Assembly (NCBI GenBank): GCA_016218095.1
Contig: JACREV010000004.1
Span: 1-32,887 of the forward strand
Reading direction: 5' to 3'
DNA from: Deltaproteobacteria bacterium
Lineage (GTDB): Bacteria > Desulfobacterota > GWC2-55-46
DNA length: 32,887 nucleotides
Shown here: positions 9,916-32,689 of the stretch, piece by piece
Numbering within the stretch: position 1 is the stretch's first letter
Layout: every line of letters starts with the position of its first letter
Made by a program: the position numbers and the translations under genes
The notes under the pieces: model-generated
Database searches by the model: none
The model's input: the letters and a program-made list of their open reading frames with translations, nothing else
What the model was told of the DNA's origin: nothing

Positions 9916-10010
9916 AAGGAGCTAAATAGTATAAGGTAAAGAGAGGCGGGGTGTCGATAAAGGAAGGCCCTCACGGCATTAAGCCCGCAAAAACAGACTT
10001 GAAATTACGA

Positions 10011-17222: not shown

Positions 17223-17227
17223 ATACG

Positions 17228-18469
17228 TCAACCCTTCAATGTGATCTTGTCCATCTTTATCGCCGCCATCGCGGCCCTGTGCTGGCGAGTTGCGAAGTCC
17301 TTTATCTCGCCCCCCCCTCCATTCGCCCTCGAGATGTCGTTCCAGAGGGACTTTTTCGAGAAGAATATCCTGCCGCCGCAGTATATTATCGTTTCAATGG
17401 AAGGCGAGCCCCCGCCCTGGACCTCGGTCTGGACGTGGTAGACGGCGCCCCCGTGGCTCACGTTGTCGTTGAACCCGAATACCTCCTGCTCACGGGCCGC
17501 CTCTTCCGCATCCTCAAGGGGTTCTACCGCGCCTTCGCCTTGCGAGGCCTTAAGCAGGCTCTCTATGATCCAGTCCATGTCCCTGTGAGCGTCGTCCGCC
17601 GACTTGTCGCACATGAACGGCCTCATGCGCCTGGCCGCGGCCTTGACCGACGGCCTCGAATAGAGGACGCCTATGTAGTCCGTATCGAGGCCCAGGAACG
17701 CGGTAGCGGCGGACCTGAACGCGTCGACGACCTTGAGGTCCTCCTTCGTTGCGGCCATGTTGAGAAGGACCCGGGGCCTGAATGACTTTATCTCGGCTAT
17801 CGCGCCCTTTGCCGCCACCCTGTCCGTCGAGGCTATCTTTTCGCAGAGGTCGGAGAAGGTCTTGACCGCTCCGCCGCTCCGCGCGTCGGTCGCGTCCCTG
17901 ACCATCCGCGCGATCTCTTCGTTTTCCGCAAAGAGCCGCTGGAGCCTCCTGTAGACGAAGCTTTTGAGGAATATGTAGGCGTTCTGGATAGCCGCGGGCT
18001 CTGGGACGAGGACGACTATGCCTTCGTTCGAGACCGCGAAGAAGTCGAGTATGTTGTAGGTGGAGCCGGCCCCGAGGTCTACGAGGATAAAGTCCGCCTC
18101 TAACTGTTTTATGTGGGAGAGGAGCCTCTGTTTCTGCGCAAAGGCCGGGTTGGCTATCCCCAGGAACTCGCCCCCGCCGGTTATGAGGCGCAGGCCCCTG
18201 ACCTCGGTCTCGATCGCGGTCTCCTCAAGGGTAGACGCCCTGCCCTTCAGAAAATCATCGAGCCCCTTTGACGGGTGCTTTATGCCGAAGTAGGTGTGGA
18301 GGTTCGCTCCGCCCAAGTCCGCGTCGACAAGGACGACCTTTTTGCCCCTCTGAGCCAGCGCGCAACCTATGTTGGCGGTGGCGATGCTTTTCCCGACGCC
18401 GCCCTTTCCCCCGCCGACGGACCATATTGATTTTTTTTCCGGCATTGCCGTATCTAGTACCCTTTTCAC
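17228..18469 (-). CDS. MinD/ParA-family P-loop ATPase with an uncharacterised ~120-aa C-terminal extension
   Basis: Deviant Walker A GGGKGGVGKS, plus VVLVDADLGGANLH and ILVDLGAG. GTG start at 18469 or ATG at 18445 (MPEKKSIW). Confidence 0.8.
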   Translation of the reverse strand: MKRVLDTAMPEKKSIWSVGGGKGGVGKSIATANIGCALAQRGKKVVLVDADLGGANLHTYFGIKHPSKGLDDFLKGRASTLEETAIETEVRGLRLITGGGEFLGIANPAFAQKQRLLSHIKQLEADFILVDLGAGSTYNILDFFAVSNEGIVVLVPEPAAIQNAYIFLKSFVYRRLQRLFAENEEIARMVRDATDARSGGAVKTFSDLCEKIASTDRVAAKGAIAEIKSFRPRVLLNMAATKEDLKVVDAFRSAATAFLGLDTDYIGVLYSRPSVKAAARRMRPFMCDKSADDAHRDMDWIIESLLKASQGEGAVEPLEDAEEAAREQEVFGFNDNVSHGGAVYHVQTEVQGGGSPSIETIIYCGGRIFFSKKSLWNDISRANGGGGEIKDFATRQHRAAMAAIKMDKITLKG

Positions 18470-18611: not shown

Positions 18612-19235
18612 GTGCGGAAGCCCCTGAAAGATAAAGCCTGTCTCCTCTTTTTCGCGTTCTTCTCTGCGGTAACGCTCGCAGGTTGCGGCGGCATGGCCGA
18701 GGACCTCGACACCCTCATAAACGCGGACGTCACGAAAAAGGTCGACGAGAAAGCGAACCTCGACGACTACTACGAGAAGTTCTACAAAGAGGTCGCACGA
18801 AGGTCGCACATCAAGCCCGGCACCTCCGATATAAAGGCCCTCGACTCGCTCCCCAAGGACCCATCGGGCAACGTCAACTGGACCGCGGCAGTGGTAAACG
18901 GCTATATAAACCCCAGGGGCTCTCTCGACCCGGGCGTCCCGGAGGACCAGCCGCTTAACTTGAACATTTTCATAGAGGCCAAGGTCCCTCTCATGGCGAA
19001 TGTCCTCTTCCCGCACTCGATACACACCTACTGGCTGAGTTGCAACAACTGCCACCCGAAGATATTCATACCCGAGGCGGGCGCGAACCCGATCTCCATG
19101 GACGAAATATTCAAGGGCCAGTGGTGCGGCAGGTGCCACGGCAAGGTCGCCTTCACCTTCTGGCCGAGGGAGAACTGCGTCAGGTGCCACATTGTATTGA
19201 AGGGGCAGTCCCTCGAGAGGGAGACCTTCAAGTAG
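18612..19235 (+). CDS. Lipoprotein with C-terminal triheme cytochrome c7-type domain
   Basis: Lipobox TLAGC. Three CXXCH motifs (CNNCH, CGRCH, CVRCH) within ~60 aa, preceded by FPHSIH as in c7/c3-type modules. GTG start. Confidence 0.75.
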   Translation: MRKPLKDKACLLFFAFFSAVTLAGCGGMAEDLDTLINADVTKKVDEKANLDDYYEKFYKEVARRSHIKPGTSDIKALDSLPKDPSGNVNWTAAVVNGYINPRGSLDPGVPEDQPLNLNIFIEAKVPLMANVLFPHSIHTYWLSCNNCHPKIFIPEAGANPISMDEIFKGQWCGRCHGKVAFTFWPRENCVRCHIVLKGQSLERETFK

Positions 19236-19434
19236 GGGCATTCCTGGCCGGTGCCCTTCGGAAACTATTGAGCAAGGATCAGGCAAAATCATCTTGATAT
19301 GAACTTTGCCGGTCCGGCAAGGACTCCTTGACTTTGACGGATTCAGCATAGTATCATTTTAAGGTTGGTAAGGCCCGGGAAGATTCCGGAAGACGCATAA
19401 ACAATAATACTACACAACAAGGAACGAGTCCGAC

Positions 19435-20472
19435 ATGAAGAAGATATTCAAGGTTCTCGTCACAATCGCCCTTCCCATTCTGATATACGGTTGCGCCGCG
19501 CCGCCGTTGCCGGACCTCTTATGGCCCGAACCCCCGGACGAGCCCCGGATAAAATATATACGGGACTTTCGCGGCGGAGCTGACTTCAAAAAAGGCTCGG
19601 CGGCGGTCGAAATTCTCCTCGGCGGCGAGGGCGGCGGCTCCCTTAAAAAGCCGATGGGCGTCCATACCGACATAAAGGGCAAGATTTATGTGACCGACAC
19701 CGCGAACGCCGACGTCTACATCTTCGACACCGTAAACATGACCGGCACGAGCCTCGCGGCGATGGGCGCCAAGCTCTTCTACAAGCCCATAGGCGTCGCC
19801 ACGGACGTAAACGGCAGGATATACGTCTCCGACTCCCAGACCGACACTGTGACGGTCGTCGACCAGACCGGCAAGATCGTCGGGAGCCTCGCCCCGGACC
19901 AGCCCTTCAAACAGCCGAGCGGCATCGCCTCGGATTTCGAGCGCAAGCGGATATATGTAGCCGACACGCACACGCACAACATCAAGGTATTCGATACCGA
20001 GACATTGAAGCACATAAACACTATCGGCAAGAGGGGCAAGGAGGAGGGCGAGTTCAACTTCCCGTCCTTTCTCACCGTCGACCCTAATGGCAACCTCTAC
20101 GTAGTCGACACCATGAACGGCAGGGTCCAGATATTCGATTCAGAGGGCAAGTTCATACGGGCCTTCGGCCAGTTCGGGGACGCGCCCGGGATGTTCGCTA
20201 GACCCAAGGGCATAGGCGTTGACAGCGAGGGGCATATATACGTCGTGGACGCGGCCTTCAATAACATCCAGATCTTCAACGAAGAGGGGCAGATACTCCT
20301 CGCGTTCGCCTCCTACGGGAGCGACAGGGGGCAGATGATCCTGCCCGCCGGCCTCTCGGTCGATAAGGACGACTATATATATGTAGTAGACTCCTGGAAC
20401 AGGCGGGTAGAGAAGTTCGAATACCTCGGGGACAAGGCGAAGGCGAGGACGAGCGTGAGCCCCAAGAAGTAA
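19435..20472 (+). CDS. Six-bladed NHL-repeat beta-propeller lipoprotein
   Basis: Lipobox LIYGC. Six repeats of the form P.G(I/V)..D..G.IYV.D..N..(I/V).(I/V)F(D/N). Confidence 0.85.
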   Translation: MKKIFKVLVTIALPILIYGCAAPPLPDLLWPEPPDEPRIKYIRDFRGGADFKKGSAAVEILLGGEGGGSLKKPMGVHTDIKGKIYVTDTANADVYIFDTVNMTGTSLAAMGAKLFYKPIGVATDVNGRIYVSDSQTDTVTVVDQTGKIVGSLAPDQPFKQPSGIASDFERKRIYVADTHTHNIKVFDTETLKHINTIGKRGKEEGEFNFPSFLTVDPNGNLYVVDTMNGRVQIFDSEGKFIRAFGQFGDAPGMFARPKGIGVDSEGHIYVVDAAFNNIQIFNEEGQILLAFASYGSDRGQMILPAGLSVDKDDYIYVVDSWNRRVEKFEYLGDKAKARTSVSPKK

Positions 20473-20486
20473 GAGACCATTCCAGG

Positions 20487-20517
20487 GCCCGGCAGGCGCG
20501 AGCCTGCCGGGCTTTTT
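20487..20517 (+). terminator. Rho-independent terminator after the NHL gene
   Basis: 10-bp stem GCCCGGCAGG / CCTGCCGGGC, 6-nt loop, then TTTTT. Confidence 0.8.
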
Positions 20518-20526
20518 ATTTAGATT

Positions 20527-20735
20527 TTGCGGGTTCAGGCTTGTAACCTGAACCCATTAATTCGTAACCCGAACAGAGCCTGTACTGGCTATCCGAATTT
20601 TTCGCCAAAAGCCCTTTTGCGCGCTCCGCGCGCTTTTGGCGATGGCGCCGAGCGCAAGCGTCTAATCCACCCCGGCGCGCTCGCCTCTCCCGCCCTTAGG
20701 CGCTCTCCGCCATGCGCCTGTGTATTTGTAAAGAC
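20527..20735 (+). repeat. Interspersed element, copy 4 (internal ~65-nt deletion relative to copy 3)
   Basis: Same head hairpin, core TTTTGCGCGCTCCGCGCGCTTTTGGCGATGGCGCCGAGCGC and tail CTTAGGCGCTCTCCGCCATGCGCCTGTGTATTTGTAAA. Confidence 0.8.
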
Positions 20736-20781
20736 AGAACAAATCCTCTTTTTGTTTTTCAAAAACTCGCTCTTTTAACTT

Positions 20782-20862
20782 CCCCTCCCTTGATGGGAGG
20801 GGACTGACGGGAGGGTGAAAAAAATACCCCTCACCCCGGCCCTCTCCCACAAGGGGAGAGGG
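20782..20862. repeat. CCCCTCCC-type hairpin repeats
   Basis: CCCCTCCC/GGGAGGGG (20782-20802) and CCCTCTCCC/GGGAGAGGG (20840-20862). Confidence 0.6.
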
Positions 20863-20884
20863 AGAACTTCTGGCGGGTTTCTCT

Positions 20885-20911
20885 GGCGGGTTCAAGTTTG
20901 AAACCTGAACC
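20885..20911 (+). repeat. Solo head hairpin of the interspersed element
   Basis: GGCGGGTTCAAGTTTGAAACCTGAACC is a variant of the GGGTTCAGG..CCTGAACCC head, with no core or tail after it. Confidence 0.55.
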
Positions 20912-21122
20912 TGCAAAGGACATAATATGAGCGATGATGCCCGGCATACGATCTGGATTTCATTAATAAAGGCCCCGCTCCTTGTGCGCGAAAGGGCCCT
21001 TAAAGGGCTGGCCCGAAAGGTAACCGGGGGCATAAAAAGAGATATTTTTAGCAATAAAAACAATAAGTTATCATGCATTAGCCCTTCCATAAAAAATTAT
21101 TAAAAACCTGTTAATTTTCCTC

Positions 21123-21150
21123 TTGACAGCCGTTAATATAAGAGTATAAT
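21123..21150 (+). promoter_or_regulatory. Strong sigma70-type promoter for the first tetraheme cytochrome gene
   Basis: TTGACA (21123-21128), 16-nt spacer, TATAAT (21145-21150). An A/T-rich UP-like tract lies immediately upstream. Confidence 0.65.
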
Positions 21151-21213
21151 GGTTTTAACTTAATGAAGGCTGACAAGGTTCACGGCGGGCCTTGACAGAC
21201 CTCCAGGCGATGG

Positions 21214-21264
21214 ATGCCTTGGTACTACCGATGAGTGGTGGTGGTAACTGAAGGCATTTTTTTT
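21214..21264 (+). promoter_or_regulatory. Terminator-like hairpin plus T8 inside the 5' leader (attenuator or riboswitch expression-platform candidate)
   Basis: ATGCCTT (21214-21220) pairs with AAGGCAT (21251-21257), with an inner TACC/GGTA helix. T8 run at 21257-21264. An alternative perfect 12-bp hairpin GGCATTTTTTTT/AAAAAAAATGCC lies at 21253-21280. Confidence 0.5.
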
Positions 21265-21341
21265 ACCCAAAAAAAATGCCAGGGACGGAACGGAACTAAG
21301 GTATCTAAAAACCAACTTCTAAGGACTGAAAGGAGTCACAT

Positions 21342-22232
21342 ATGAAAAGGTTTCTCGCAGTCGCAGTAGCGGTCGCCTCGATAGGCTTCCTCACCGCCGG
21401 AACAGCTTCAGCCGTTGACACCTACGCCGCTGGCGATGCCGCATCAGGCATAGCCTCGGCGAGGCATAACCTCGGCGGTTTCTCGATGCACATAGGCGCC
21501 GTGGGCACAACCGAAATCTGCGTATTCTGTCACACGCCTCACCACACCAACACCGCCAACAACCTTAGGCCGATGTGGAACAGGGGCACCTCTGCTCCGA
21601 CCTCCTTCACCGCCTACGGCACGACGATCGCGGGCACCACGATCGCCAACACCGACATCGGCTCGACCTCGCTTGCTTGCTTGAGCTGCCATGACGGCGT
21701 AACCACCTTCGACAACCTCGTCAACGCCCCTGGTAAGTCCGGCATAACCACTGGCGGTACGGACCGTGGCTACACCTTCTATGACTTCGGCACAGTCGTC
21801 TCCGACTTCATGACCTCCAGCAGGTTGAACATCGGCCTCAACCTCTCCAACGACCACCCGGTCTCCGTGACCTACAACGCCGGGACGGCCGCGGGCTTGA
21901 GGGCCACCAACACGACCATCAGCGCGATCGACCTTACCTCTGAGCTCAACACCTCTGCCACGACCTACGACAACGGCAACCTCACCAAGAACCTCTGGGC
22001 GGTAAAGGGCTTCGTCTCCGACACGGCGACGATCGCTGACCTCCTCAGGTCCGGCAAGGTTGAGTGCTCCAGCTGCCACGATCCGCACTTCAACAACAAG
22101 TCTTGGCAGGAAATCGACTCCACCTACTCGAACGTGACCGCGGACCAGGAAGCTGAGTCCAACGGCCTGTTCATCAGAAGGGTCGGCGGCAACACCGGTT
22201 CTGGCGTATGCAGAACCTGCCACGAGAAGTAA
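21342..22232 (+). CDS. Secreted tetraheme c-type cytochrome, paralog 1
   Basis: Signal peptide (..TAGTASA/VD). Four CXXCH motifs: CVFCH, CLSCH, CSSCH, CRTCH. RHNLGG...EICVFCHTPHH resembles the doubled-CXXCH family. AAAGGAG Shine-Dalgarno. Confidence 0.88.
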   Translation: MKRFLAVAVAVASIGFLTAGTASAVDTYAAGDAASGIASARHNLGGFSMHIGAVGTTEICVFCHTPHHTNTANNLRPMWNRGTSAPTSFTAYGTTIAGTTIANTDIGSTSLACLSCHDGVTTFDNLVNAPGKSGITTGGTDRGYTFYDFGTVVSDFMTSSRLNIGLNLSNDHPVSVTYNAGTAAGLRATNTTISAIDLTSELNTSATTYDNGNLTKNLWAVKGFVSDTATIADLLRSGKVECSSCHDPHFNNKSWQEIDSTYSNVTADQEAESNGLFIRRVGGNTGSGVCRTCHEK

Positions 22233-22268
22233 AAACCGCTCGGTCGCAAGACCGAATCGGATAAAAAA

Positions 22269-22301
22269 GAAGGGCCGGGAAACCGGCCCTTCTTTTTTTT
22301 T
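22269..22301 (+). terminator. Strong Rho-independent terminator after paralog 1
   Basis: GAAGGGCCGG-GAAA-CCGGCCCTTC followed by T9. The A-run upstream makes it potentially bidirectional. Confidence 0.85.
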
Positions 22302-22344
22302 GCCTCCATACCCTCCCCCCTCTCCTGAAGGCGCAATCGCCTCC

Positions 22345-22372
22345 TCGACAACCGCATTTCCTGATGTATACT
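22345..22372 (+). promoter_or_regulatory. Sigma70-type promoter candidate for paralog 2
   Basis: TCGACA (22345-22350), 16-nt spacer, TATACT (22367-22372). Confidence 0.45.
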
Positions 22373-22471
22373 CATCTATGTTGGGATAGAAGCCTCAAAA
22401 CCGGGAAAAGGAGGTAAAAAAAGCCGATCCGACCGATAGGCTGACGGTATTCAACCTGAGAGGAGCAACTC

Positions 22472-23362
22472 ATGAGATATTTGAGAGCTGTTACCCTTTT
22501 GGCCGTCTCAGTCTGCATCCTTTCCGCAGCCGCCGCGGAGGCCCTTGACACCTACCTGGCCGGAGACGCCGCGACCGGCATAGCCGGTTCCAGGCACAAC
22601 CTCGGCGGCCTCTCCATGCACATAAGCTCGCAGGCGACCACCGAGATCTGCGTATTCTGCCACACGCCCCACCACACGAACACTACGAACAACATGAAGC
22701 CTATGTGGAACAGGTCCGCGCTCTCCATCACGAGCTTCACCGCCTACGGCACGACCGCCTCTTTCTCGACCATTTCCAACACCGACATAGGCTCCGTCTC
22801 GCTCGCGTGCCTCTCCTGCCACGACGGCGTCACCACCTTCGACAACATCGTGAACGCGCCCGGCAGGGGCGGGGTCACCCAGGGGGGGTCCGACCGAGGT
22901 TACGAGTTCCTCTTAACGGGGATCCTCGTCTCCGACTTCATGACCGCGTCCCGGCTCGTCGTAGGCGTAGACCTCTCGAACGACCACCCGGTCTCCGTCC
23001 TCTATCTCGCGGGCACTGCCGCGAGCCTCCGCCCGACGAACACGACCATCAGCCAGATAGACATCACGGCCGGCCTGAACGTGACCGCGATTTCATTCGA
23101 CAACGGCAATATGAGAAAGAACCTCTGGGCCATAAAGGGGTTCATCTCCGACCAGGCAACTATCGCGGACCTGCTCCGGAACGGCAGGGTCGAGTGCTCC
23201 TCGTGCCACGACCCGCACTTCAACAACAAGTCATGGCAGGAGGTCGACTCGACCTACACTACCGTCGCCGCATATCAGGAGGTGGAATCGAACGGCCTTT
23301 TCCTCCGCAGAGTAGGCGGCAACACGGGTAGCGGGCTTTGCAGGACGTGCCATAACAAATAG
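22472..23362 (+). CDS. Secreted tetraheme c-type cytochrome, paralog 2
   Basis: Same length (296 aa) as paralog 1 and collinear with it. Roughly two-thirds or more of residues are identical by eye. Same four CXXCH positions. GAGGAG Shine-Dalgarno. Confidence 0.88.
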   Translation: MRYLRAVTLLAVSVCILSAAAAEALDTYLAGDAATGIAGSRHNLGGLSMHISSQATTEICVFCHTPHHTNTTNNMKPMWNRSALSITSFTAYGTTASFSTISNTDIGSVSLACLSCHDGVTTFDNIVNAPGRGGVTQGGSDRGYEFLLTGILVSDFMTASRLVVGVDLSNDHPVSVLYLAGTAASLRPTNTTISQIDITAGLNVTAISFDNGNMRKNLWAIKGFISDQATIADLLRNGRVECSSCHDPHFNNKSWQEVDSTYTTVAAYQEVESNGLFLRRVGGNTGSGLCRTCHNK

Positions 23363-23418
23363 GCGGTAATGGAAAGTGGCGCGCCAAACCAAAAAATCGG
23401 CATTTGAGATCTCAGTCC

Positions 23419-23447
23419 AGGGGGCCGGTCCGGCCCCCTTTTTTTTT
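23419..23447 (+). terminator. Strong Rho-independent terminator after paralog 2
   Basis: AGGGGGCCGG/CCGGCCCCCT palindrome followed by T9. Confidence 0.85.
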
Positions 23448-23655
23448 GCCTTCCCCCTTTGCCGCCCCTTTCAAGCCAAAGCGGCTTTCCCCGTAAGTTA
23501 AAATTTTTTAATAATCGCATAATCGTCATTTTAAGCTGAAAATATAGAATGTACCCCGGGGGACGCTTAACCTCCCCTGAAGATAAGATTTTAGATTTAT
23601 TATTTATTTCCGTTATATTATAATAGCCAATCAATAAACCCCGGAGGTCCAAAAA

Positions 23656-24651
23656 ATGTCAAGCTTCTCAAAAAGGCTCTTCGCCGCGGCCGTCTTTGTC
23701 GCGCTCCTCGCCCCGGCGTCGTTCGCGGCCAATTCGCCGACGGACGTGATCGCAAAGGTCAACGGAAAGACCATAACGAGGGAGAACCTGGATACCGCCA
23801 CGAACAACCTCCTGCCCCTCATGACATATCACCAGTCGGTCTCCGACGAACGGATGAGGGAGATACAAAAGCAGGCGCTCGAGAAGCTCATAAACAACGA
23901 GCTCATGTACAAGGCCGCCGTCGACTCCAAGCAGGCCGACGTAAATCCGAAGGAAATAGAGGCGAGGGTAAAGGACCTCAAGAAGAAGCTCCCGAAGGGC
24001 GAGACGATCGAGAAGGTCTTGAAGAGAAGCGGGATGACGCTCGCCGACCTCAAGGAGGACTTCAGGAAGGACATGGTCGTCGAGAGGCTGTCAAAGAAAA
24101 CGAACGAAGAGCTCAAGAAACTCTCGGAGAAGACCGTCGACGAGGCGTTCATGAAGGACTACTACCAGAAGAACCTCGCGAAGTTCAAGGAGCCGGAGCA
24201 GATACACTTAAGGTCCATACTCGTCAAGGCCGACCCCTCCGGCGGCCAGAAGGTCTGGAACGAGTCGCTCAAAAAGGCCAAGGAGATAGCCGATAAGGCG
24301 AAGGCCGGAGAGGACTTCGCGAAGCTCGCCGAGAAGCACTCGGAGGACCCGTTCGCTAAAAAGGGCGGCGACATGGGCTGGTCCCACAAGGGCGAGCTCA
24401 TACCTGAGATCGACGACGCCGCCGCGAAGCTCAAGGTCGGCGAGATCGGCGGCCCGGTCATGTCCATCTACGGCTACCACGTTATAAGGCTCGAGGGCAG
24501 CAAGCCCTCAGTGCAGAAGAAGTTCGAGGAGCTCAACAAGGAGAAGCTCGAGAAGGAGCTCGAGGCCAAGGAGTACAAGAAGCTCTGGAACGGATGGCTC
24601 AAAAGCCTGCGCGACTCATCCAAGGTCGAGTACGTCACAATACTAAAATGA
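23656..24651 (+). CDS. Periplasmic PpiC (parvulin)-type peptidyl-prolyl isomerase, SurA/PrsA-like
   Basis: Signal peptide. SurA-N-like helical region. Rotamase core FAKLAEKHSEDP.AKKGGDMGW........PE.....KLKVGEI.GPV.S.YGYH(V/I)I. Confidence 0.85.
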   Translation: MSSFSKRLFAAAVFVALLAPASFAANSPTDVIAKVNGKTITRENLDTATNNLLPLMTYHQSVSDERMREIQKQALEKLINNELMYKAAVDSKQADVNPKEIEARVKDLKKKLPKGETIEKVLKRSGMTLADLKEDFRKDMVVERLSKKTNEELKKLSEKTVDEAFMKDYYQKNLAKFKEPEQIHLRSILVKADPSGGQKVWNESLKKAKEIADKAKAGEDFAKLAEKHSEDPFAKKGGDMGWSHKGELIPEIDDAAAKLKVGEIGGPVMSIYGYHVIRLEGSKPSVQKKFEELNKEKLEKELEAKEYKKLWNGWLKSLRDSSKVEYVTILK

Positions 24652-24701
24652 CGGCTACGGATCAGGGCCGTCCCGCATAAGGACGCAAGGATACCCTTTT
24701 C

Positions 24702-25151
24702 ATGGACAAGAAACTTTTCGTAACGATAGCCGCCGCTTTTGCCGCGCTCCTTTCCGTCTCCGGATGCACCGGAGAGAAGAAGGGGGCTCCCCCGGAAAAG
24801 ACCGCCGCGGAGGCCGCGCCGGCCGTACAGGCCGGCTCCGGCGACCCGGCCTCCGGCAAGGACATCTATTTCAGGTACTGCCACTTCTGCCACGGGCAGA
24901 AGGGCATGGGCGACGGCCCCGTGGGCATAGCCCTCTCCCCCCACCCGGCCGACTTCGTGAACGACGAGAAGAGGATGTCGAAGACCGACGCCGAGCTCTT
25001 TAAATCCATAACAGAGGGGATACACAAGGAGGTCGGCGGAGAAGCGATGTCCATGCCGAGGTGGCAGGAGATATTGTCTGAAAAAGAGAGATGGGACGTG
25101 CTCGCGTTCATAAGACAGTTGGAGCGCGAGGGCAAGACCGCCCCGAAATAA
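24702..25151 (+). CDS. Monoheme class-I cytochrome c lipoprotein
   Basis: Lipobox VSGC. Single CHFCH motif in GKDIYFRYCHFCHG, with a distal-Met candidate in AMSMPRW. Confidence 0.85.
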   Translation: MDKKLFVTIAAAFAALLSVSGCTGEKKGAPPEKTAAEAAPAVQAGSGDPASGKDIYFRYCHFCHGQKGMGDGPVGIALSPHPADFVNDEKRMSKTDAELFKSITEGIHKEVGGEAMSMPRWQEILSEKERWDVLAFIRQLEREGKTAPK

Positions 25152-25176
25152 AGCCGGCAAACTCAAAGAGCGAATT

Positions 25177-26163
25177 ATGAAAAAACTTCTTGCTTCAGTC
25201 GCCGTATCCCTCTGCGTCATGGCCTCTTCCGCCTTCGGGGCCGCAAGCGACTACGACCCGGTGACAGGCGAGCCCAAGTGCATGGACTGCCATACGCCCG
25301 ACAGGAGGTACTCTACGGATTACACCAGGGACGAGACCTGTGTAGAGTGCCACGGCCCGGGCTTGAGCGACAAATACGTCGATATAAACAACAGGTTCAG
25401 GGAAAGCGCGGAGCTGGGCGAGATAGGCAAATACACCGAGACCGCCGCGGCTTCCGGCAAGGGCGCGGTGAAGGAGGCCGCCCCCAAGGGGATGATACTC
25501 ATCCCGGCCGGGGAGTTCACCATGGGGTCTAACGAATGGTGGCCCAAGAGCCAGCCCGAGCATTCGAGGATGGTCGAGGCCTTTTATATCGACAAGTTTG
25601 AAGTGACGAATGCGCGCTACAAGGCCTTCGTCGACGCCACGGGCTACCCGGCCCCGGACCACTGGAAGGACGGCAGTATCCCCGAAGGCAAGAAGGACCA
25701 CCCTGTCGTATACGTGACATGGAAGGACGCGGACAACTTCTGCAGATGGGAAGGCAAGCGCCTGCCCGATGAGGCCGAATGGGAGAAGGCCGCCAGAGGC
25801 ACCGACAAGAGGACATTCCCCTGGGGCGACAAGTTCGACAAGGAAAAGGGCAACACACCCCAGTACGGGCATGAGGACACGCTCCCGGTCGGGTCCTTCG
25901 AGAGCGGCAAGAGCCCCTACGGAGTCTACGACATGGCCGGCAACGCCTTCGAGTGGACCGACAGCTGGTTCAAGCCCTACCCCGGAAGCACCCACCCGGA
26001 CGAAAACTACGGGGAGAAGTACAAGGTGCTCAAGGGCGGCTCCTGGTACGACTGCACCACATACAAGTGCGGGATAAGCGCCCCGACATACAACAGGATA
26101 TTCTTCCACCCGACCACGAAGAACAACAACTTCGGGTTCAGGTGCGCGAAGGACAAAAAATAA
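25177..26163 (+). CDS. Diheme c-type module fused to a formylglycine-generating-enzyme (FGE/SUMF1) domain
   Basis: Signal peptide. CMDCH and CVECH in the first ~70 aa. FGE motifs MILIPAGEFTMGS, HPVVYVTWKDADNFCRWEGKRLPDEAEWEKAARG, YDMAGNAFEWT, GGSWY and FGFRCA. C-x4-C pair CTTYKC present. Confidence 0.85.
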   Translation: MKKLLASVAVSLCVMASSAFGAASDYDPVTGEPKCMDCHTPDRRYSTDYTRDETCVECHGPGLSDKYVDINNRFRESAELGEIGKYTETAAASGKGAVKEAAPKGMILIPAGEFTMGSNEWWPKSQPEHSRMVEAFYIDKFEVTNARYKAFVDATGYPAPDHWKDGSIPEGKKDHPVVYVTWKDADNFCRWEGKRLPDEAEWEKAARGTDKRTFPWGDKFDKEKGNTPQYGHEDTLPVGSFESGKSPYGVYDMAGNAFEWTDSWFKPYPGSTHPDENYGEKYKVLKGGSWYDCTTYKCGISAPTYNRIFFHPTTKNNNFGFRCAKDKK

Positions 26164-26177
26164 AAGGCCGCGATGAG

Positions 26178-27746
26178 ATGAAAGGAGAAGGCCCGAACAA
26201 ATACCTCGTCTTCACCGCCTTCGCGTGCGGCTCGATCATAATGGTCGTCGAGCTCATCGGCTCAAGGGTAATAGGCCCGCCTTTCGGCGTGAGCCTCTTC
26301 GTCTGGACCTCTCTCATCACCGTAACGCTCGTCTCCCTCGCCCTCGGCTACTGGCTCGGCGGCAGGCTCTCAGATAGGTTCGGGAGCCACGGCGCCCTCT
26401 TCACGGTAATATTCCTCGCAGGGCTCACCCTCATCGCGGTCCCGGTCATAAAAGGGACGGTCATAGGCCTCTCGCTCTCCCTGGGGCTCCGCGTAGGCTC
26501 GCTCGTAAGCTCGACGGCCCTTTTCGGCCCGCCGCTCTTTTTACTCGGCATGGTAGCCCCGTATACCGTAAAACTCTACATGGGCGACGGGAAGGACGGG
26601 ATCGGGAGGACCGTCGGGTGGCTATACGCGGTATCCACCGCCGGGAGCTTCATCGGGACGGTATTGACCGGCTTCATCCTCATACCCAACCTCGGCGTCA
26701 ACAACATCATCTACCTGTCCTCGGCCTCCCTCATCCTCATCGCGGCGGGCTACTGGCTCTTTTTCAGAAGGAAAGCGTACGCCGTCGCCGTCGCGCTCCT
26801 GCCGTTCGGCCTGCTGCTCTTTCCGAAAGACCTCCCGTCGGTCGTGAGGCCGGACGGCACGAACGTCTCCCTCATCGTGAACGAGGACAGCGCCTACGGG
26901 CAGATCAAGGTGGTGGATTACTCCTACGGCGGCCAGTTGATAAGAGAGTTCCTTCTCGAGAACATGATACAGGGCGGGGTCGACATGAAGACCGGCCTTT
27001 CAGTCTCCAAGTACACCTATTACATAGAAAAACTCGCGCGCGCTTACAAGCCGGACGCAAGGCGCGCCCTCGTGATCGGGCTCGGCAGCGGCATAGTCCC
27101 CAACAGGTTCGAGAGGCTCTACGGCATAAAGACCGACGTCGTCGAGATAAACCCGGCTGTCGTGGACGCCGCATCTAGGTACTTCTCCTACGACAGATCG
27201 CTCCACCCCACGTTCATCGAGGACGGCAGGTACTTCCTCAAGGGGTCTACTGAGCCTTACGAGGTAATAGTCCTCGACGCGTTCTCGGGAGACATCCCGC
27301 CGAGCCATCTCATAAGCCTCGAGGCGTTCGAGCTCGTGAGGGGGAGGCTTTCCAGAGACGGGGTCCTTCTCATAAACTTCATAAGTTCGAACGTGCCGGA
27401 GGACCTCGCGGCCCCGGCGTCGCTCCTGCGGACCCTGAAGGAGGTCTTCCCCCATGTCGACGTGTACACATCCGTTGAGTATTCCGACCCGTCGCCGCGG
27501 GTCGTGAACATGCTCTTCGCGGCGACTATGGAGAGGCGCGCAATCGAGGACTCCTACGACGCAGAGGTGCATCCCGGGTACGAGGAGGACGTAAGGACGC
27601 TCCTTGCGAGGAGGATAGATCTTCCTCCCGGGGAGGCGCTTTTTACCGACGATTTCAATCCCGTGGATTTCCAGGACTACAAGACAAGGGAGCGGTTCCG
27701 TTACAGCATAATCTCTGCTTCGGACCGCGCGATCATCCTGGACTGA
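26178..27746 (+). CDS. Fused polytopic membrane domain / spermidine-synthase-fold (class I methyltransferase-like) protein
   Basis: The N-terminal ~200 aa holds multiple TM helices. The C-terminal part has ALVIGLGSGIVP, VVEINPAVVDAA and YEVIVLDAFSGD..PSHL. Start set at ATG 26178, 14 nt after the upstream stop. Confidence 0.8.
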   Translation: MKGEGPNKYLVFTAFACGSIIMVVELIGSRVIGPPFGVSLFVWTSLITVTLVSLALGYWLGGRLSDRFGSHGALFTVIFLAGLTLIAVPVIKGTVIGLSLSLGLRVGSLVSSTALFGPPLFLLGMVAPYTVKLYMGDGKDGIGRTVGWLYAVSTAGSFIGTVLTGFILIPNLGVNNIIYLSSASLILIAAGYWLFFRRKAYAVAVALLPFGLLLFPKDLPSVVRPDGTNVSLIVNEDSAYGQIKVVDYSYGGQLIREFLLENMIQGGVDMKTGLSVSKYTYYIEKLARAYKPDARRALVIGLGSGIVPNRFERLYGIKTDVVEINPAVVDAASRYFSYDRSLHPTFIEDGRYFLKGSTEPYEVIVLDAFSGDIPPSHLISLEAFELVRGRLSRDGVLLINFISSNVPEDLAAPASLLRTLKEVFPHVDVYTSVEYSDPSPRVVNMLFAATMERRAIEDSYDAEVHPGYEEDVRTLLARRIDLPPGEALFTDDFNPVDFQDYKTRERFRYSIISASDRAIILD

Positions 27747-27752
27747 AAAAGC

Positions 27753-27781
27753 TTGAAAAAGCCGCTTTAGACGGTTAATAT
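27753..27781 (+). promoter_or_regulatory. Internal sigma70-type promoter candidate for the second FGE-like gene
   Basis: TTGAAA (27753-27758), 17-nt spacer, TAATAT (27776-27781). An AAGGAGG Shine-Dalgarno precedes the ATG at 27834. Confidence 0.45.
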
Positions 27782-27833
27782 TTCGCGTTCGGGCCGCTTT
27801 CAGCGTGCCTTGAAACTCCAAGGAGGTTCTTAG

Positions 27834-28622
27834 ATGCGGTCCGTAAAAAGTTCGGGTTATCTGGCCATTACAGCGCTCGCAATCGCGCTTTTCGGATGCA
27901 AACCGGCTCCTGAGGACATGGTAAAGGTCCCCGGAGGCGAGTTCACGATGGGCAGTAACGAAGTCGACAGGGAGGCGAAGGCCATGCAGTACGGCGACAG
28001 GCGCCCCTGGTACGCGAACGAGAGGCCCGAGAGGAAGATGAAGCTCGGCACGTTCCACATCGACAGGACAGAGGTGACGAACAGGCAGTACAAGGAGTTC
28101 GTCGAAGGCGCAAAACACGCCGCGCCCCCGCACTGGGCTCTCGGCTCGTACCCCGAGAGCCTCGCCGACCATCCCGTGGTGTTCGTGACCTGGAAGGACG
28201 CCGATGAGTTCTGCAAGTGGAAGGGCAAGAGGCTCCCCTCGGAAGCGGAGTGGGAGAAGGCCGCCAGGGGCGCGGACGGGAGGATATTCCCATGGGGCAA
28301 CGACTTCGACATAAAGAAGGTCAACACCATAGGCGAGTACGGCGGCACGGTCCCCGTAGGCACGCTCAAGGACGGGGTGAGCCCCTACGGCGCCTACGAC
28401 ATGTCCGGCAACGCCCAGGAGTGGACGTCCGACTGGTACAAGCCTTATCCCGATAACGAGTTCAAGGACCCGGACTACGGGGAGAAGTTCAAGGTGGTGC
28501 GCGGCGGCGGATGGGGAGGCATGGGCCACTACTCGCTCCAGGTATACGTAAGGGCGCCTTTCAGGAACGCCGCGCCTCCGGAAGGCCGTTACGACGACGT
28601 GGGTTTCAGGTGCGTCTGGTAA
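27834..28622 (+). CDS. FGE/SUMF1-domain lipoprotein lacking the catalytic Cys pair
   Basis: Lipobox LFGC. FGE motifs VPGGEFTMGS, HPVVFVTWKDADEFCKWKGKRLPSEAEWEKAARG, YDMSGNAQEWT and VGFRCV. The region equivalent to C-x4-C reads GGMGHYSLQVY. Confidence 0.82.
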   Translation: MRSVKSSGYLAITALAIALFGCKPAPEDMVKVPGGEFTMGSNEVDREAKAMQYGDRRPWYANERPERKMKLGTFHIDRTEVTNRQYKEFVEGAKHAAPPHWALGSYPESLADHPVVFVTWKDADEFCKWKGKRLPSEAEWEKAARGADGRIFPWGNDFDIKKVNTIGEYGGTVPVGTLKDGVSPYGAYDMSGNAQEWTSDWYKPYPDNEFKDPDYGEKFKVVRGGGWGGMGHYSLQVYVRAPFRNAAPPEGRYDDVGFRCVW

Positions 28623-28879
28623 GTCTCCACGTTTAACGGCGCACGGCGCCTTTTTCAGTCCTTACGGACCGCTCGCCTCCGCCAGACCCGGCGGTCCGGC
28701 CAAAAAAATACACCGCAGGCCTGGCCGGACGGGCAAATCCGTATCGAACGGCTGAGACTTGATTTGCCCCCAAAGGCTCCGTTCGAGACTTTGGCCCTGC
28801 GCCGAGCAGTCGGGAAAAAGAACAATTTTTAGAGGTAGCCTTTAAACAAAGCGTCGGGCCGGGAAAGGACCGCTCTGCC

Positions 28880-30901
28880 ATGCTCCGCAACAAACTGGCG
28901 CTCGTAGCCGCAGTAGCCGCAGTAGCCGCGGGCCTCTTTGCGCCTCAAAGGGGCTATGCCGTCGAAGAGGACCCGTACATCTACAAGTCCCTCGTGGGAC
29001 GGGTCTATTTCGAGTTCGAGGAGGCCGCGACCGAGCAGAACGGCATATCGTCGGATTCGGCCCGCTTCCAGCAGACGTACAGCCTGGACTTCAAGGGAAA
29101 CTTCATGTCCAGGAGGCTCCTCATCTACGACGCGGGGGTCGCATTAACCAACAACGACTATTCATCTAATTCAAGCGACGTCGCTACCCGTACAATCGAT
29201 TATTACCTGCGTACGACCATACTCCCCAAGTCCGGCATACCGCTCACCCTCTACGGGCAGAGGACCGAGGACCAGACGAGTTCATCGGACAGGACCAAGA
29301 CGACATACGGGCTCAACTGGTTCTTGAAGCTCCGCACCCTGCCGCAGACCTCGATCTACGCCGAAAGGGTCCTGTCGGAGTCCGACAGCGTCGATACCGA
29401 GACAGGCAATTACAAGGTGGTCCTTAAAAAGGAGATAGGCCCGACCGAGAACGACGCGGTCATGTCGTTCGCCACGAGCGACTCCTCCGACGGCACGAGC
29501 TCGACGGTAACGACGTTTAACGCGAATAACCTCACGAGGATCTCCAAGAGCACCCAGATCTACGCCGGCGCGACCCTCAGCCGGTCCGCCTCTGACGAGT
29601 CGGATTCGAACACCGATACGAGCCTCGAAGGCTTGAGCCTCCTGCTGAACTCCAAGCCGAGCCAGGACTTCAACCAGAACCACAGGTATGTATACTACAG
29701 GAACAAGACCGACGGGGACGAGCAGATAGGGACAAACTACTCAGGCGACATGGGTTACAGGCTGACGCAGAGGACGGACGCGAACCTCGCCGTGAGCCTC
29801 GGCACCTCCGAGAGCAACTCTTCCACGTCCACGTCCGAGACCGAGTCGCTTGGCGTAAGCGGCGGCATGAACTTCAGGGTCACCGACAACCTGATGGCCT
29901 CGGAATCGGTCTCATATTCGGACTTCAAGTCCAACTCAAACGCCTCGGCGGCTTCCACCGCGGACACGACCACGGATACGACCGATACCACCGACACGAC
30001 AGACGGCACCGATACCGCTACCGACACCTCCGACACCTCCGCCACGACAGGCGACAGGACGACGCTCAGGGCGACCTCCAGGCTCAGCTACTCGAAGATA
30101 TTCTCCCGGGCCGTGCTCGGCGCGGGATGGTCGATCGGCTACATAGAGGACAAGGCCGAGGGGTTCAGGACCGGACAGGGCCTGGAACACAGCGTCAACG
30201 CCTCGCTCGGCAACATAGACGTAAACCGGCACGTGGGTTTCGGCGTCGGCTTCTCGCAATCCGACACATACACGCTCGCGGGAGAGGACATATTCAGCCA
30301 CTCGAAGAACTACAACGCCAACGCCTTCAACAAGACATTGAAGCAGTACGTCCAAATGAACGCAATGTACAACAAGTCGGTCTACGACTCCTATATCGAC
30401 GTGACCGGCACCAGGAGCGAGACATACAGGCTCGACGCCACTTCCGCCTACTTCAAAAACTTCACCCTCCAGGGTTTCGCGGAGCACTCGAGCACCTTCA
30501 GCGGGGTGAGCGGATTCGGCCAGACCGACACAGTCGGGGCCTCCGTCGGGCATAACAGGCCGTTGTTCAAGGGCTCTCTGAACCTCTCGCTCTACTACGC
30601 CCTCATCGACTCCGAATACGAGGGCGGCTCGGACACTATAAGAGACCTGCAGTTCCTCACGCAGTACACTAAAAAATTCTATAACAACCTCAACTGGCAG
30701 GCTACCTTCCGCGTCACCCAGAAGAAGAGCTCGGAATCCGACAAGGACGAGACATCGTTCACCAACTCCCTCACTTATCCCCTGCGGGCCTGGCTCTTAG
30801 GGCTCGAGCAGATGAACTCGTACACGGTCGAGGACACTACCGAGACGAAGGAGGCCTCGATACTCTTCAGGGCCACGAGGGTATTCGTGAGGATATGGTA
30901 A
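28880..30901 (+). CDS. Large predicted outer-membrane beta-barrel protein with an internal Thr/Asp-rich tract
   Basis: Signal peptide. 673 aa, no Cys, S/T/N/Y/D-rich with many alternating amphipathic segments. Ends ...RVFVRIW (C-terminal aromatic residue). Confidence 0.65.
   Translation: MLRNKLALVAAVAAVAAGLFAPQRGYAVEEDPYIYKSLVGRVYFEFEEAATEQNGISSDSARFQQTYSLDFKGNFMSRRLLIYDAGVALTNNDYSSNSSDVATRTIDYYLRTTILPKSGIPLTLYGQRTEDQTSSSDRTKTTYGLNWFLKLRTLPQTSIYAERVLSESDSVDTETGNYKVVLKKEIGPTENDAVMSFATSDSSDGTSSTVTTFNANNLTRISKSTQIYAGATLSRSASDESDSNTDTSLEGLSLLLNSKPSQDFNQNHRYVYYRNKTDGDEQIGTNYSGDMGYRLTQRTDANLAVSLGTSESNSSTSTSETESLGVSGGMNFRVTDNLMASESVSYSDFKSNSNASAASTADTTTDTTDTTDTTDGTDTATDTSDTSATTGDRTTLRATSRLSYSKIFSRAVLGAGWSIGYIEDKAEGFRTGQGLEHSVNASLGNIDVNRHVGFGVGFSQSDTYTLAGEDIFSHSKNYNANAFNKTLKQYVQMNAMYNKSVYDSYIDVTGTRSETYRLDATSAYFKNFTLQGFAEHSSTFSGVSGFGQTDTVGASVGHNRPLFKGSLNLSLYYALIDSEYEGGSDTIRDLQFLTQYTKKFYNNLNWQATFRVTQKKSSESDKDETSFTNSLTYPLRAWLLGLEQMNSYTVEDTTETKEASILFRATRVFVRIW
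29957..30056 (+). repeat. Imperfect ACN-GAY hexanucleotide repeat encoding TADTTTDTTDTTDTTDGTDTATDTSDTSATTGD
   Basis: Direct reading of the sequence. It is a low-complexity insert inside the barrel ORF. Confidence 0.8.
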
Positions 30902-31725
30902 TGACCTCGGGCGCCTCCGGGAACATCCCGACCGATACCTCACCCCTCCCCTCGATCGCCCTTGCGGCGGTCGTCATCGCGCTCGCCTTTATCTCGTTCA
31001 ACAGGAACTCGGTCTGGAAGAGCCCGGAGACCCTCTGGGCGGATGTCGTGGCCAAATCCCCGTCAAAGGCGCGCCCCCATTACAACTACGCGACGGTGCT
31101 TGCCGGAAACGGAGACCTCGACCGCGCGCTCGAGGAGAACTTGAAGGCCATCGAGATATACCCGTATTACGGGAAGGCGTACTTCAACATAGGGGCGATC
31201 TTCCACACATGGGGGAGGGTCGACGAGGCGATAGAGAAGTACGAGATCGCCGTGGCATTGAAACCCGACATAGTAGAAGCGCACAACAACCTCGGGTACG
31301 CCTATTACACAAAGGGCGGATACCAGGAGGCCTTGAGGGAATACAGGACCGCCCTCGGCATGAAACCCTCTCACGTGAAGGCTCGCATAAACCTCGGGTA
31401 TCTTTACAGGGACACAGGCATGCTGGACGAGGCGATCGATGAGTACAGGACGGCGTTAAAGTACATGCCCGATTACGCCGACGCCTACAGGCTCATCGGC
31501 GAGGCCTATCTGCTCAAGAAGGACCCGGCCTCCGCGATAGAGAGCCTGAAAAGGGCGATAGAGCTCGCCCCTTACTCCGCGGAGGCCCACAACGGGCTCG
31601 GCAAGGCGTTCGAGATCTCCGGAGAGCCAAGGCTCGCCTGGGCTGAATATGAAAAAGCCCTCAGCCTGAACCCCGGCCTTCTCGATGCGGGAGAGGGCCT
31701 CCGTCGTCTTGACGGCGCACTTTAG
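30895..31725 (+). CDS. Single-pass membrane-anchored TPR-repeat protein
   Basis: One N-terminal TM (LPSIALAAVVIALAFISF), then about six TPR units (..A..NLGYAY...G.Y.EA...Y..AL...P). Its start overlaps the barrel gene's end (ATG 30895 or in-frame ATG 30901). Confidence 0.85.
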   Translation: MVMTSGASGNIPTDTSPLPSIALAAVVIALAFISFNRNSVWKSPETLWADVVAKSPSKARPHYNYATVLAGNGDLDRALEENLKAIEIYPYYGKAYFNIGAIFHTWGRVDEAIEKYEIAVALKPDIVEAHNNLGYAYYTKGGYQEALREYRTALGMKPSHVKARINLGYLYRDTGMLDEAIDEYRTALKYMPDYADAYRLIGEAYLLKKDPASAIESLKRAIELAPYSAEAHNGLGKAFEISGEPRLAWAEYEKALSLNPGLLDAGEGLRRLDGAL

Positions 31726-31867: not shown

Positions 31868-32689
31868 TCAGGCCCTTATGACTTTAAGGGCGTCCGCGGC
31901 CTCGTTCCTTACGGCTTCGAACGGGTAATCGGTGAAGGCCTGCACATAGCCCTCGAACCCCCTGGCCCTCCCCCCGAGCGCGGTCACCACCTTCAGTATC
32001 TCGATGATCGTCCTCGAGTCCTTCCTGTCCCCCGCAAGCATCAACGCCTCGAATATCTTCGGCACGTCGGCGGCATCGAGCCTCGAAGACGCCCCCATGA
32101 CGACTTCAGCGGCGGAGGCCACCGGCCCCGGCTCGCCGGAGTTGAGGATATGGAGCAGGGCCTCCATCCCTTTCCTGCCGCCCGTAAGAAGAGCCTGCGC
32201 CGAGGTGGACCTGTAGAAGGGCTCGGCCTGGTCCATGAGGTGCTTCCTCACGATCTCCATCCCGTCGGTGAAACCCTGCACGAGCGCTATCGCCGAGGCC
32301 TTTCTCACGTGGTAGACTTCGCTGTTCAGGTGCTCGACGAGCACGACCTTTGCGTCCGAGGTCTTAAGCCTCGCGAGCTCCTGGGCCGCGAGTATCGAGA
32401 CGTCCTCGTTCTTGTGCTCGAGGCTCCCGACCATTATGTTATAGAATGCCTTGTTCCTTGAAAGGGAGATGGTGTGGAGTATGGTCTTGGGGAAGACCCC
32501 CGGCGGCGGGTAGTCTATAAGGTAGGAGAGCTCCTTTATCGTCCCTACCTGGTCTTCCTTTACGAGGTGGTTGAGGAGCATCGTCCCCTCCTCCCTCGTG
32601 ACGGTCCCTGCCATGACCTTGGAAAACATATTGGCCAGCTTCTCGCGGGTCGTGCTCATCGGATTGGAGTCTTTCTTTTCAAGAGCCAT
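31868..32689 (-). CDS. HEAT/armadillo-like repeat protein
   Basis: 273 aa, all-helical, with repeats of the type ..V(R/H)..A..AL...... (for example DVSILAAQELARL, VYHVRKASAIALV, FEAVRNEAADALK). ATG start with Shine-Dalgarno. Confidence 0.6.
   Translation of the reverse strand: MALEKKDSNPMSTTREKLANMFSKVMAGTVTREEGTMLLNHLVKEDQVGTIKELSYLIDYPPPGVFPKTILHTISLSRNKAFYNIMVGSLEHKNEDVSILAAQELARLKTSDAKVVLVEHLNSEVYHVRKASAIALVQGFTDGMEIVRKHLMDQAEPFYRSTSAQALLTGGRKGMEALLHILNSGEPGPVASAAEVVMGASSRLDAADVPKIFEALMLAGDRKDSRTIIEILKVVTALGGRARGFEGYVQAFTDYPFEAVRNEAADALKVIRA

Follow-up and report, generated by a model that had tools for sequence, protein, structure and literature searches.

A conserved gene cluster of an uncultured Deltaproteobacteria bacterium that probably encodes an OmcE-type extracellular cytochrome filament system

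The window analysed here, a stretch of 32,887 nucleotides from a Deltaproteobacteria bacterium (GenBank assembly GCA_016218095.1, contig JACREV010000004.1), contains between positions 18612 and 31725 a locus of eleven open reading frames (ORFs), two of which encode paralogous tetraheme cytochromes related to the filament-forming cytochrome OmcE. All eleven lie on the + strand, at or near the positions given in an earlier note on this DNA, which had proposed a dedicated system for a surface cytochrome. A recount bore out its inventory of fourteen CXXCH motifs in five proteins (3+4+4+1+2 in gene order) and four lipobox-like signal peptides, which were read from the sequence as LAGC (18612-19235), IYGC (19435-20472), VSGC (24702-25151) and LFGC (27834-28622). 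Its domain calls likewise agreed with profile searches against Pfam and NCBIfam, which covered twenty window proteins out of about 27 sizeable ORFs. Among the window proteins scanned, neither collection matched a family of terminal reductases or oxidases, as the note had stated.

The tetraheme genes A (21342..22232) and B (22472..23362) each encode a protein of 296 residues, A with a Sec signal peptide, and the two proteins are 71% identical. In the Protein Data Bank (PDB) the best match of A is 7TFS, the OmcE filament of Geobacter sulfurreducens (E=8.6e-16). The sole other significant relative is 9YUQ (E=2.8e-12), which is entered as a putative multiheme cytochrome c and is apparently the OmcE bundle of D. 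soudanensis. Compared with G. sulfurreducens OmcE by phmmer, A and B gave E-values of 2e-19 and 1.7e-17, respectively. In an alignment with six Geobacter-type OmcE sequences the four CXXCH motifs of A (C60/C63/H64, C113/C116/H117, C242/C245/H246 and C290/C293/H294) are invariant, and so are the further histidines H42, H67, H172 and H249 (protein A numbering). This eight-histidine pattern is conserved in OmcE homologs of five phyla (Petersen et al., bioRxiv 10.1101/2025.10.22.684050) and includes the inter-subunit heme ligand used by OmcE (PMC9473688). By sequence, the window tetrahemes are OmcE homologs, and we regard A and B as candidate subunits that may form a filament. The earlier note had likened them to nanowire cytochromes; that likeness holds, although the homology to OmcE had gone unrecognised and the core architecture had already been described.

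The gene upstream of A encodes a lipoprotein with NHL repeats, a six-bladed beta-propeller (19435..20472; PF01436, E=1.7e-35; PF17170, E=7.6e-20). It matches the lipoprotein encoded directly upstream of omcE in G. sulfurreducens with a phmmer E-value of 8.7e-61, and its gene precedes the OmcE-like gene in every locus examined. Near the other end of the cluster, a protein of 673 residues (28880..30901) has no match in Pfam or NCBIfam, and AlphaFold2 predicts for it a barrel of 32 beta strands with a mean pLDDT of 85.6. Its fold matches in the PDB are large outer-membrane barrels, in agreement with the outer-membrane barrel called in the earlier note. The best of them is MtrB (6R2Q_B, E=8.7e-11), a generic match, since the TM-score is just 0.34 and BtuB, LptD and the PapC usher score about the same. 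Few proteins belong to the family: of 1.84 billion representatives, 291 reach E<=1e-3. The barrel may serve the cytochrome as a secretion pore or as an anchor. Between its strands 17 and 18 lies a Thr/Asp/Ser-rich low-complexity loop, TADTTTDTTDTTDTTDGTDTATDTSDTSATTGD (residues 355-388), which is predicted to be disordered (pLDDT <50). The start of the following gene (30895..31725) overlaps the stop codon of the barrel gene by 7 nt (ATGGTAA), and this order of the two genes is conserved. It encodes a TPR protein of 276 residues with family matches to E=1e-36, which a single hydrophobic segment (residues 17-35) is predicted to anchor in the membrane.

Two small cytochromes could serve as carriers. 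The product of the first gene (18612..19235) is a lipoprotein with a C-terminal triheme domain of the c7 type and three CXXCH motifs (TIGR04257, 65 bits at a cut-off of 40; PF14522, E=1.7e-12). Its best PDB match is the c7-repeat cytochrome GSU1996 (3OV0, E=1.3e-35), and it shares 29% identity with the PpcA-like protein encoded at the omcE locus of G. sulfurreducens. In 20 loci its gene is the first of the cluster. We consider it a candidate periplasmic electron donor. The second carrier is a monoheme class I cytochrome c lipoprotein (24702..25151; PF13442, E=6e-11; PF00034, E=2.7e-10), whose gene has a conserved position after that of a peptidyl-prolyl isomerase (PPIase). The latter (23656..24651, 331 residues) combines SurA_N and PpiC-type domains (PF00639, E=1.1e-21; PF13624, E=9.3e-14), is a predicted periplasmic isomerase/chaperone, and follows the OmcE-like gene or genes in 21 loci. 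A polytopic membrane protein of 522 residues (26178..27746) is a fusion of the MFS/SpeE type with a C-terminal spermidine-synthase fold. It matches NF037959 at positions 4-478 of 480 (236.8 bits at a cut-off of 40, E=4.3e-70), and a check of the start codon places its start most likely at 26178. Its gene is found in most cluster loci and is missing from L027, L028, L033, L054 and L055.

The remaining two cluster proteins share the fold of the formylglycine-generating enzyme (FGE; PF03781, FGE-sulfatase): a secreted fusion with a diheme domain (25177..26163, two CXXCH motifs, E=6e-60) and a lipoprotein paralog (27834..28622, E=2.4e-56). The top PDB matches of the pair include FGE structures from human and bacteria; the best matches of the fusion are authentic FGEs (E=4e-33), those of the lipoprotein ToxD and CalU17. 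Both CXXCH motifs of the fusion are kept in all 16 sequences compared, and C293-x4-C298 in all 15 that extend over its region. This C-x4-C was considered as the catalytic FGE pair and ruled out by a HMMER alignment to human FGE, in which C293, C298 and C189 correspond to C341, C346 and C235 and the equivalent of C336 is replaced; close to a 4-residue indel this alignment is not beyond doubt. In human FGE, C346 forms a structural disulfide with C235. The replacement of C336 leaves the copper-binding cysteine pair (human C336 and C341) incomplete in the fusion, and the lipoprotein paralog, in which GGGWGGMGHY is invariant in 15 orthologs, has no Cys pair, so that the site is intact in neither protein. 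The eleven cluster proteins contain no substrate motif of the CxPxR type (C/S-x-P/A-x-R), and the twenty window proteins scanned include no member of a sulfatase family.

An FGE fold without FGE chemistry is also known from the PorK/GldK lipoproteins of the type IX secretion system and from PvdO. The window pair matches these proteins in addition to authentic FGEs; one of its members is a lipoprotein, and in both the catalytic Cys pair is incomplete or missing. PorK of the type IX system adjoins a giant outer-membrane barrel, and the window FGE-fold proteins, too, are encoded beside one. In sequence, however, the window pair is far closer to true FGEs (E=1e-33); its match to PorK is weaker (E=1e-16). 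One of its members carries a diheme domain, and no other type IX component was found in the window. Because neither protein has an intact FGE copper site, a role as a structural or electron-relay adapter at the barrel is favoured over formylglycine chemistry, and we suggest with low confidence that the pair acts as a structural partner of the barrel or as an electron relay. The literature contains, as far as our search went, no published link between FGE-fold proteins and nanowires or extracellular electron transfer. The FGE-like component has no counterpart in the published accounts of nanowire clusters that were compared, as the earlier note had supposed.

The tetraheme genes are set apart by their expression signals. 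A sigma-70-type promoter on the + strand (21123..21150, TTGACA-16-TATAAT) agrees with the consensus at 12/12 positions and lies about 190 nt upstream of gene A; across 10 loci with a protein identity of only about 50%, neither hexamer varies. Terminator-like hairpins on the same strand, both matched to the consensus only, follow the NHL gene (20484..20515; 14-bp stem with 10 G-C pairs, T run) and gene B (23419..23439; 9-bp stem with 8 G-C pairs, T8). A perfect, conserved promoter together with flanking terminator-like hairpins is typical of the gene of a major structural subunit. Given the two hairpins and the promoter, the locus is probably not one operon. From these pattern matches it looks like three or more transcription units, and they suggest that the PPIase-to-TPR genes form a unit separate from the tetraheme genes.

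Between promoter and gene A lies a structured 5' leader (21151..21341, + strand). Its first hairpin (21176-21192) holds the invariant motif GGYTCAYGRNGGGYC, and a terminator-like hairpin at 21216-21255 is followed by T8. Downstream of this T run, AAAAAAAATGCC could pair with GGCATTTTTTTT to form an alternative hairpin. Each of 21 loci, among them the scattered-paralog loci L023, L029 and L037, has a single copy of GGYTCAYGRNGGGYC, located about 100-190 nt upstream of the OmcE-like gene where the start was mapped. RNAalifold detected 7 compensatory pairs, and the covariation supports two hairpins: across the 21 sequences, 89.9% of the cells were paired compared with 31-58% in slid controls, and the covariation score was 0.38 compared with 0.08-0.13. 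GEMM-type riboswitches precede some Geobacter cytochrome genes. A search of the whole window against Rfam at the gathering threshold gave no match, and a permissive search of 20440-23700 gave sub-threshold noise only and no GEMM-type riboswitch. The leader may act as an attenuator or in the manner of a riboswitch.

Within the 870-bp gap that separates the NHL gene from gene A, a hairpin-forming motif is present twice in 20516-21122, as GGGTTCAGGCTTGTAACCTGAACCC near 20530 and as GGGTTCAAGTTTGAAACCTGAACC near 20888. Near 20780-20865 there are palindromic stretches rich in G/C, and all of these may be repeat elements. The corresponding gap of L001 carries an inserted TPR gene.

To what extent the cluster is conserved was examined by scanning 185,579 species genomes with tetraheme A. 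The scan yielded 61 loci, all 61 from uncultured genomes labelled Deltaproteobacteria or Thermodesulfobacteriota, many of them from groundwater. Thirteen loci have the cluster (L001, L002, L003, L005, L007, L009, L027, L028, L033, L042, L043, L054 and L055). This number includes loci with the downstream block only, where the contig begins inside the cluster, and several shorter contigs carry parts of it. The conserved order is c7-type lipoprotein, NHL lipoprotein, OmcE-like cytochrome (one or two copies, the second in some genomes only), PPIase, monoheme cytochrome, diheme-FGE fusion, MFS/SpeE protein where present, FGE-fold lipoprotein, barrel and TPR protein. Identity in the cluster loci falls to about 50% for the cytochrome and to 26-29% for the barrel. 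In a search seeded with the barrel, the three more distant homologs whose surroundings were looked up (L146-L148; 37%, 30% and 26% identity) each lie in the same cluster. The earlier note had named conservation of the tetraheme genes with the FGE, SpeE-fold, barrel and TPR genes as a check of its idea, and the same order was indeed recovered in at least 13 related genomes. Of its proposed linkage of the PPIase-to-TPR genes to the cytochromes, co-conservation stood, and in L051 the accessory block is inverted yet still adjacent to the cytochromes; co-transcription is made doubtful by the hairpins and promoter-like sites, pattern matches that suggest a separate unit.

About 35 other loci contain OmcE-like paralogs without the accessory genes. 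Many of these scattered paralogs are pentaheme proteins (29 of 71 ORFs have five CXXCH motifs), and a 5-heme OmcE-like group has been noted by Petersen et al. (bioRxiv 10.1101/2025.10.22.684050). At least 10 OmcE-like paralogs are present in assembly JACPGB01 and five tandem copies in L012; L013, L019, L021 and L023 are further loci of this kind. One paralog site, after mutS2, dnaG and rpoD and before hisS and acs, is conserved. The scattered paralogs adjoin housekeeping genes, and no reductase was found among the conserved neighbour families scanned. The association of tetraheme homologs with reductases, which the earlier note had counted against its own idea, was thus not seen.

Several genes flank the cluster in the window. 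A gene for a HEAT-repeat protein (31868..32689, - strand; PF13646, E=4.7e-8) is convergent with the cluster and directly follows it in almost every full-cluster locus, the most diverged ones (40-48% identity) among them. It is a conserved neighbour, and its membership in the system is uncertain. Upstream, genes for a PilZ-domain protein (16518-17231) and a ParA/MinD-like ATPase (17228-18469) are divergent from the cluster (- strand) and accompany it in closer genomes only. Farther away, a protein of 203 residues (8980-9591, - strand) carries a C-terminal PEP-CTERM sorting motif; the G+C content of its surroundings (about 9000-10000) is 0.45, compared with about 0.58 elsewhere.

The closest described relatives of the cluster are the omcE loci of Geobacter and Desulfuromonas. 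In G. sulfurreducens this locus comprises purHDE, a ppcA-like gene, resB, ccsB, genes for a 9-heme and an 8-heme cytochrome, an NHL lipoprotein gene, a gap of 578 bp, omcE, a gene for a 752-residue protein without Pfam match, and glycosyltransferase genes; two further classical omcE loci resemble it. The published core of the omcE cluster consists of subunit, propeller and giant barrel (bioRxiv 10.1101/2025.10.22.684050), and Petersen et al. select nanowire candidates in the same work by a context of beta-propeller lipoprotein and large outer-membrane barrel. The window provides this context with its NHL lipoprotein (19435-20472) and its 32-strand barrel (28880-30901). It shares with the omcE loci a homologous tetraheme, in which all eight histidines and the four CXXCH motifs agree, the order of propeller, long non-coding gap, subunit and giant barrel without Pfam match (as in G. 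sulfurreducens and the two others), and a c7-type triheme protein encoded nearby. Moreover, a protein encoded downstream of the barrel in the omcE locus weakly matches the window TPR protein (E=3.3e-7). In contrast to the omcE loci, the window has one propeller instead of two, the triheme lipoprotein and the monoheme cytochrome in place of the 8- and 9-heme cytochromes, and no glycosyltransferase genes, and its barrel, at 673 residues and 32 predicted strands, is remotely similar to the omcE barrel of about 750 residues.

Other parts of the window recall the osc (omcS-companion) cluster of G. sulfurreducens, GSU2493-GSU2505. The account in PMC13194489 assigns OscH to folding, OscE/F/G to secretion and OscD to morphology. 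It describes OscI and OscJ as multiheme periplasmic cytochromes and OscK as beta-rich like OscA, and the supplement gives sizes for OscA (289 residues, 56% sheet), OscB (1017, helical), OscE (701), OscF (169), OscG (367) and OscH (548). Both clusters have two adjacent paralogous subunit genes (omcS and omcT in osc), beta-rich proteins (OscA and OscK in osc), a PPIase, of which OscH is the functional analog, a channel and periplasmic cytochromes, these parts being likened by description and not by sequence. A set of PPIase, propeller and channel has also been described by Shen et al. (2025, Cell Chem Biol), as summarised in the same source. In addition, GSU2502, which lies between omcT (GSU2503) and GSU2501, is annotated as a spermidine synthase and was down-regulated together with omcS (GSU2504), omcT and GSU2501 in the same electrode-biofilm comparison (PMC10599522). 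By its gene number GSU2502 should be OscB, and the window MFS/SpeE protein is matched to it by annotation. The statement of the earlier note that a SpeE-fold component is foreign to described nanowire systems is contradicted by this annotation.

The two clusters also differ. OmcS is a hexaheme cytochrome and the window subunits belong to the tetraheme OmcE-like family; OscH has 548 residues and the window PPIase 331; and where osc has the 1017-residue OscB, the window has the 522-residue MFS/SpeE protein and a separate TPR protein of 276 residues. In this comparison by description, no window counterpart of OscD, OscF or OscG was identified, and FGE-fold proteins are reported for the window only, as far as osc is described in PMC10599522 and PMC13194489.

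Taken together, homology and synteny make it probable that the locus encodes an OmcE-type extracellular cytochrome filament (nanowire) system of an uncultured Deltaproteobacteria/Thermodesulfobacteriota bacterium. From the same two lines of evidence we infer export via the barrel, chaperoning, polymerisation and electron feeding. The tetrahemes would be made from their own strong promoter behind the structured leader and exported by Sec, and would receive their hemes in the periplasm. There, the SurA/PpiC-type chaperone may keep the coil-rich subunits assembly-competent, as proposed for OscH with OmcS. The subunits would then cross the outer membrane, or be anchored there, via the 32-strand barrel, with the NHL propeller lipoprotein and the TPR protein as putative periplasmic partners, and would polymerise by donating a histidine to the heme of the neighbouring subunit, as in OmcE. 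The triheme lipoprotein and the monoheme cytochrome could feed electrons to the base of the filament. The diheme-FGE fusion, its lipoprotein paralog and, in most genomes, the SpeE-fold protein would form a lineage-specific accessory module. Thus, the view of the earlier note that the locus is dedicated to a surface or polymerising cytochrome instead of a respiratory enzyme gains from homology and conserved synteny, with polymerisation itself as the predicted part. As a more far-reaching and rather doubtful idea, the locus could embody an undescribed mode of nanowire biogenesis and control, in which the heme-wired FGE pair, with the SpeE-fold protein where present, modifies or electrically couples the OmcE-type subunit at the 32-strand export barrel, and in which subunit synthesis is gated by a leader RNA of a new class, either a riboswitch or an attenuator that responds to a protein, which some scattered pentaheme paralog genes have as well.

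Several observations weigh against a filament system. The window tetrahemes are about 65 residues longer than Geobacter OmcE, owing to two insertions in the alignment with Geobacter-type OmcE, and AlphaFold2 gave an unusable model of tetraheme A (48-sequence alignment, no hemes; pLDDT 44), which leaves polymerisation as something we infer. The PPIase, the two FGE-fold and the MFS/SpeE genes are missing from the three classical omcE loci examined. The window barrel has no phmmer match to the barrel of the G. sulfurreducens omcE cluster, and a direct sequence search of the Geobacter barrels against 168 members of the window barrel family gave none either. With hhalign, a first comparison based on a 25-sequence profile reached a probability of 27%. 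A 132-sequence profile of the window barrel matched the Geobacter-type omcE barrels with 92% probability (E=5e-7) over 182 N-terminal columns, which include the common motif FxQxYSL; this match does not extend beyond the N-terminal third. Spurious profile matches are common with beta-barrels, and we take the remote link between the two barrels as suggestive only. Finally, L066 (5205-7014, metagenome contig Ga0335085_10017724) contains, between dnaA/dnaN and rho/prfA, a pair of genes for a diheme-FGE protein of 50% identity and for its FGE-fold partner, and its 10-kb contig has no OmcE-like, PPIase or barrel genes. The FGE module is therefore not exclusive to nanowire loci. A metagenome scan seeded with the diheme-FGE alignment retrieved mostly generic FGE-domain genes and three loci with the diheme fusion, none of the three with OmcE-like genes; with so few such loci, this reverse co-occurrence scan is uninformative except for the FGE pair standing alone.

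If the subunits do not polymerise, the barrel might sheathe or dock one or a few tetrahemes that relay electrons from the c7-type and monoheme cytochromes to the surface, as in porin-cytochrome conduits (MtrAB/Pcc). As in the MtrCAB system of Shewanella (6R2Q), a large outer-membrane barrel is encoded beside secreted multiheme cytochromes, MtrB ranks first among the fold matches of the barrel, and periplasmic carriers are encoded in the locus. Nor need every OmcE-like protein be a filament former; Petersen et al. themselves use gene context to narrow down their candidates. The match to MtrB is generic, however, and the window has neither an MtrA/DmsE-type decaheme protein nor an MtrC/OmcA-type surface lipoprotein cytochrome: its largest cytochromes have four hemes, and TIGR03508 and TIGR03507 scored just 21-22 bits against the window proteins (22 bits for TIGR03508, at a cut-off of 192; cut-offs of 192-209 for the two). 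The barrel, with 32 predicted strands, also exceeds MtrB, which has 26. The solved relatives of the tetraheme, moreover, are all filaments, and we consider such a conduit unlikely. The invariant hemes and C-x4-C of the fusion, the proximity of its FGE-fold domain to authentic FGEs and the self-contained two-gene unit in L066 would also suit a periplasmic redox enzyme, oxidase or modifying, that is built around the heme-coupled FGE-fold protein and uses the cytochromes as electron partners and the barrel as a substrate porin. This appears quite improbable, given the incomplete copper site, a paralog that lacks it altogether, and the absence of a CxPxR-type motif in the cluster proteins and of a sulfatase among the twenty window proteins scanned. 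It would moreover leave unexplained the homology to OmcE, the match of the NHL protein to the omcE locus, and the promoter, leader and terminator signals around the tetraheme genes.

The full-cluster loci all belong to a single group of uncultured genomes that are related to one another, and in the closer genomes unrelated-looking flanking genes (PrpD, a PEP-mutase-family protein and a phosphoribosyltransferase) are syntenic as well. The PPIase-to-TPR genes might thus be inherited neighbours that share a lineage-specific synteny with the cytochromes and no function. The order of the cluster is kept, however, down to identities of 26-50%, while most of the upstream flanks (PilZ, ParA, PrpD, PEP mutase) are lost in L027, L028 and L033. 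The block remains adjacent where it is inverted, the three distant barrel homologs all share the context, and parts of the block parallel the separately studied osc cluster, which makes mere co-inheritance very improbable and the least probable of the readings considered here.

An OmcE-type filament system, our preferred reading, would combine known with apparently new parts. The omcE core of subunit, propeller and giant barrel is already known, and so is the presence of a PPIase and a spermidine-synthase gene in osc. The conserved FGE-fold pair, one member of which carries two hemes, the family of 32-strand barrels and the structured leader RNA look new. Folding, export, anchoring and termination of nanowires are still called unresolved in the literature (PMC12307469; bioRxiv 10.1101/2025.10.22.684050). 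Since the locus combines features of the omcE and osc clusters, it suggests a common parts list for nanowire systems, consisting of a propeller, a giant barrel, a PPIase, a SpeE-fold membrane protein and small periplasmic cytochromes, to which the FGE-fold pair and the leader RNA would add new, testable candidates for nanowire biogenesis. With eleven genes in about 13 kb, the cluster is compact enough to be tried in a heterologous host. It would extend OmcE-type systems to a groundwater lineage, which bears on the spread of long-range extracellular electron transfer in aquifers.

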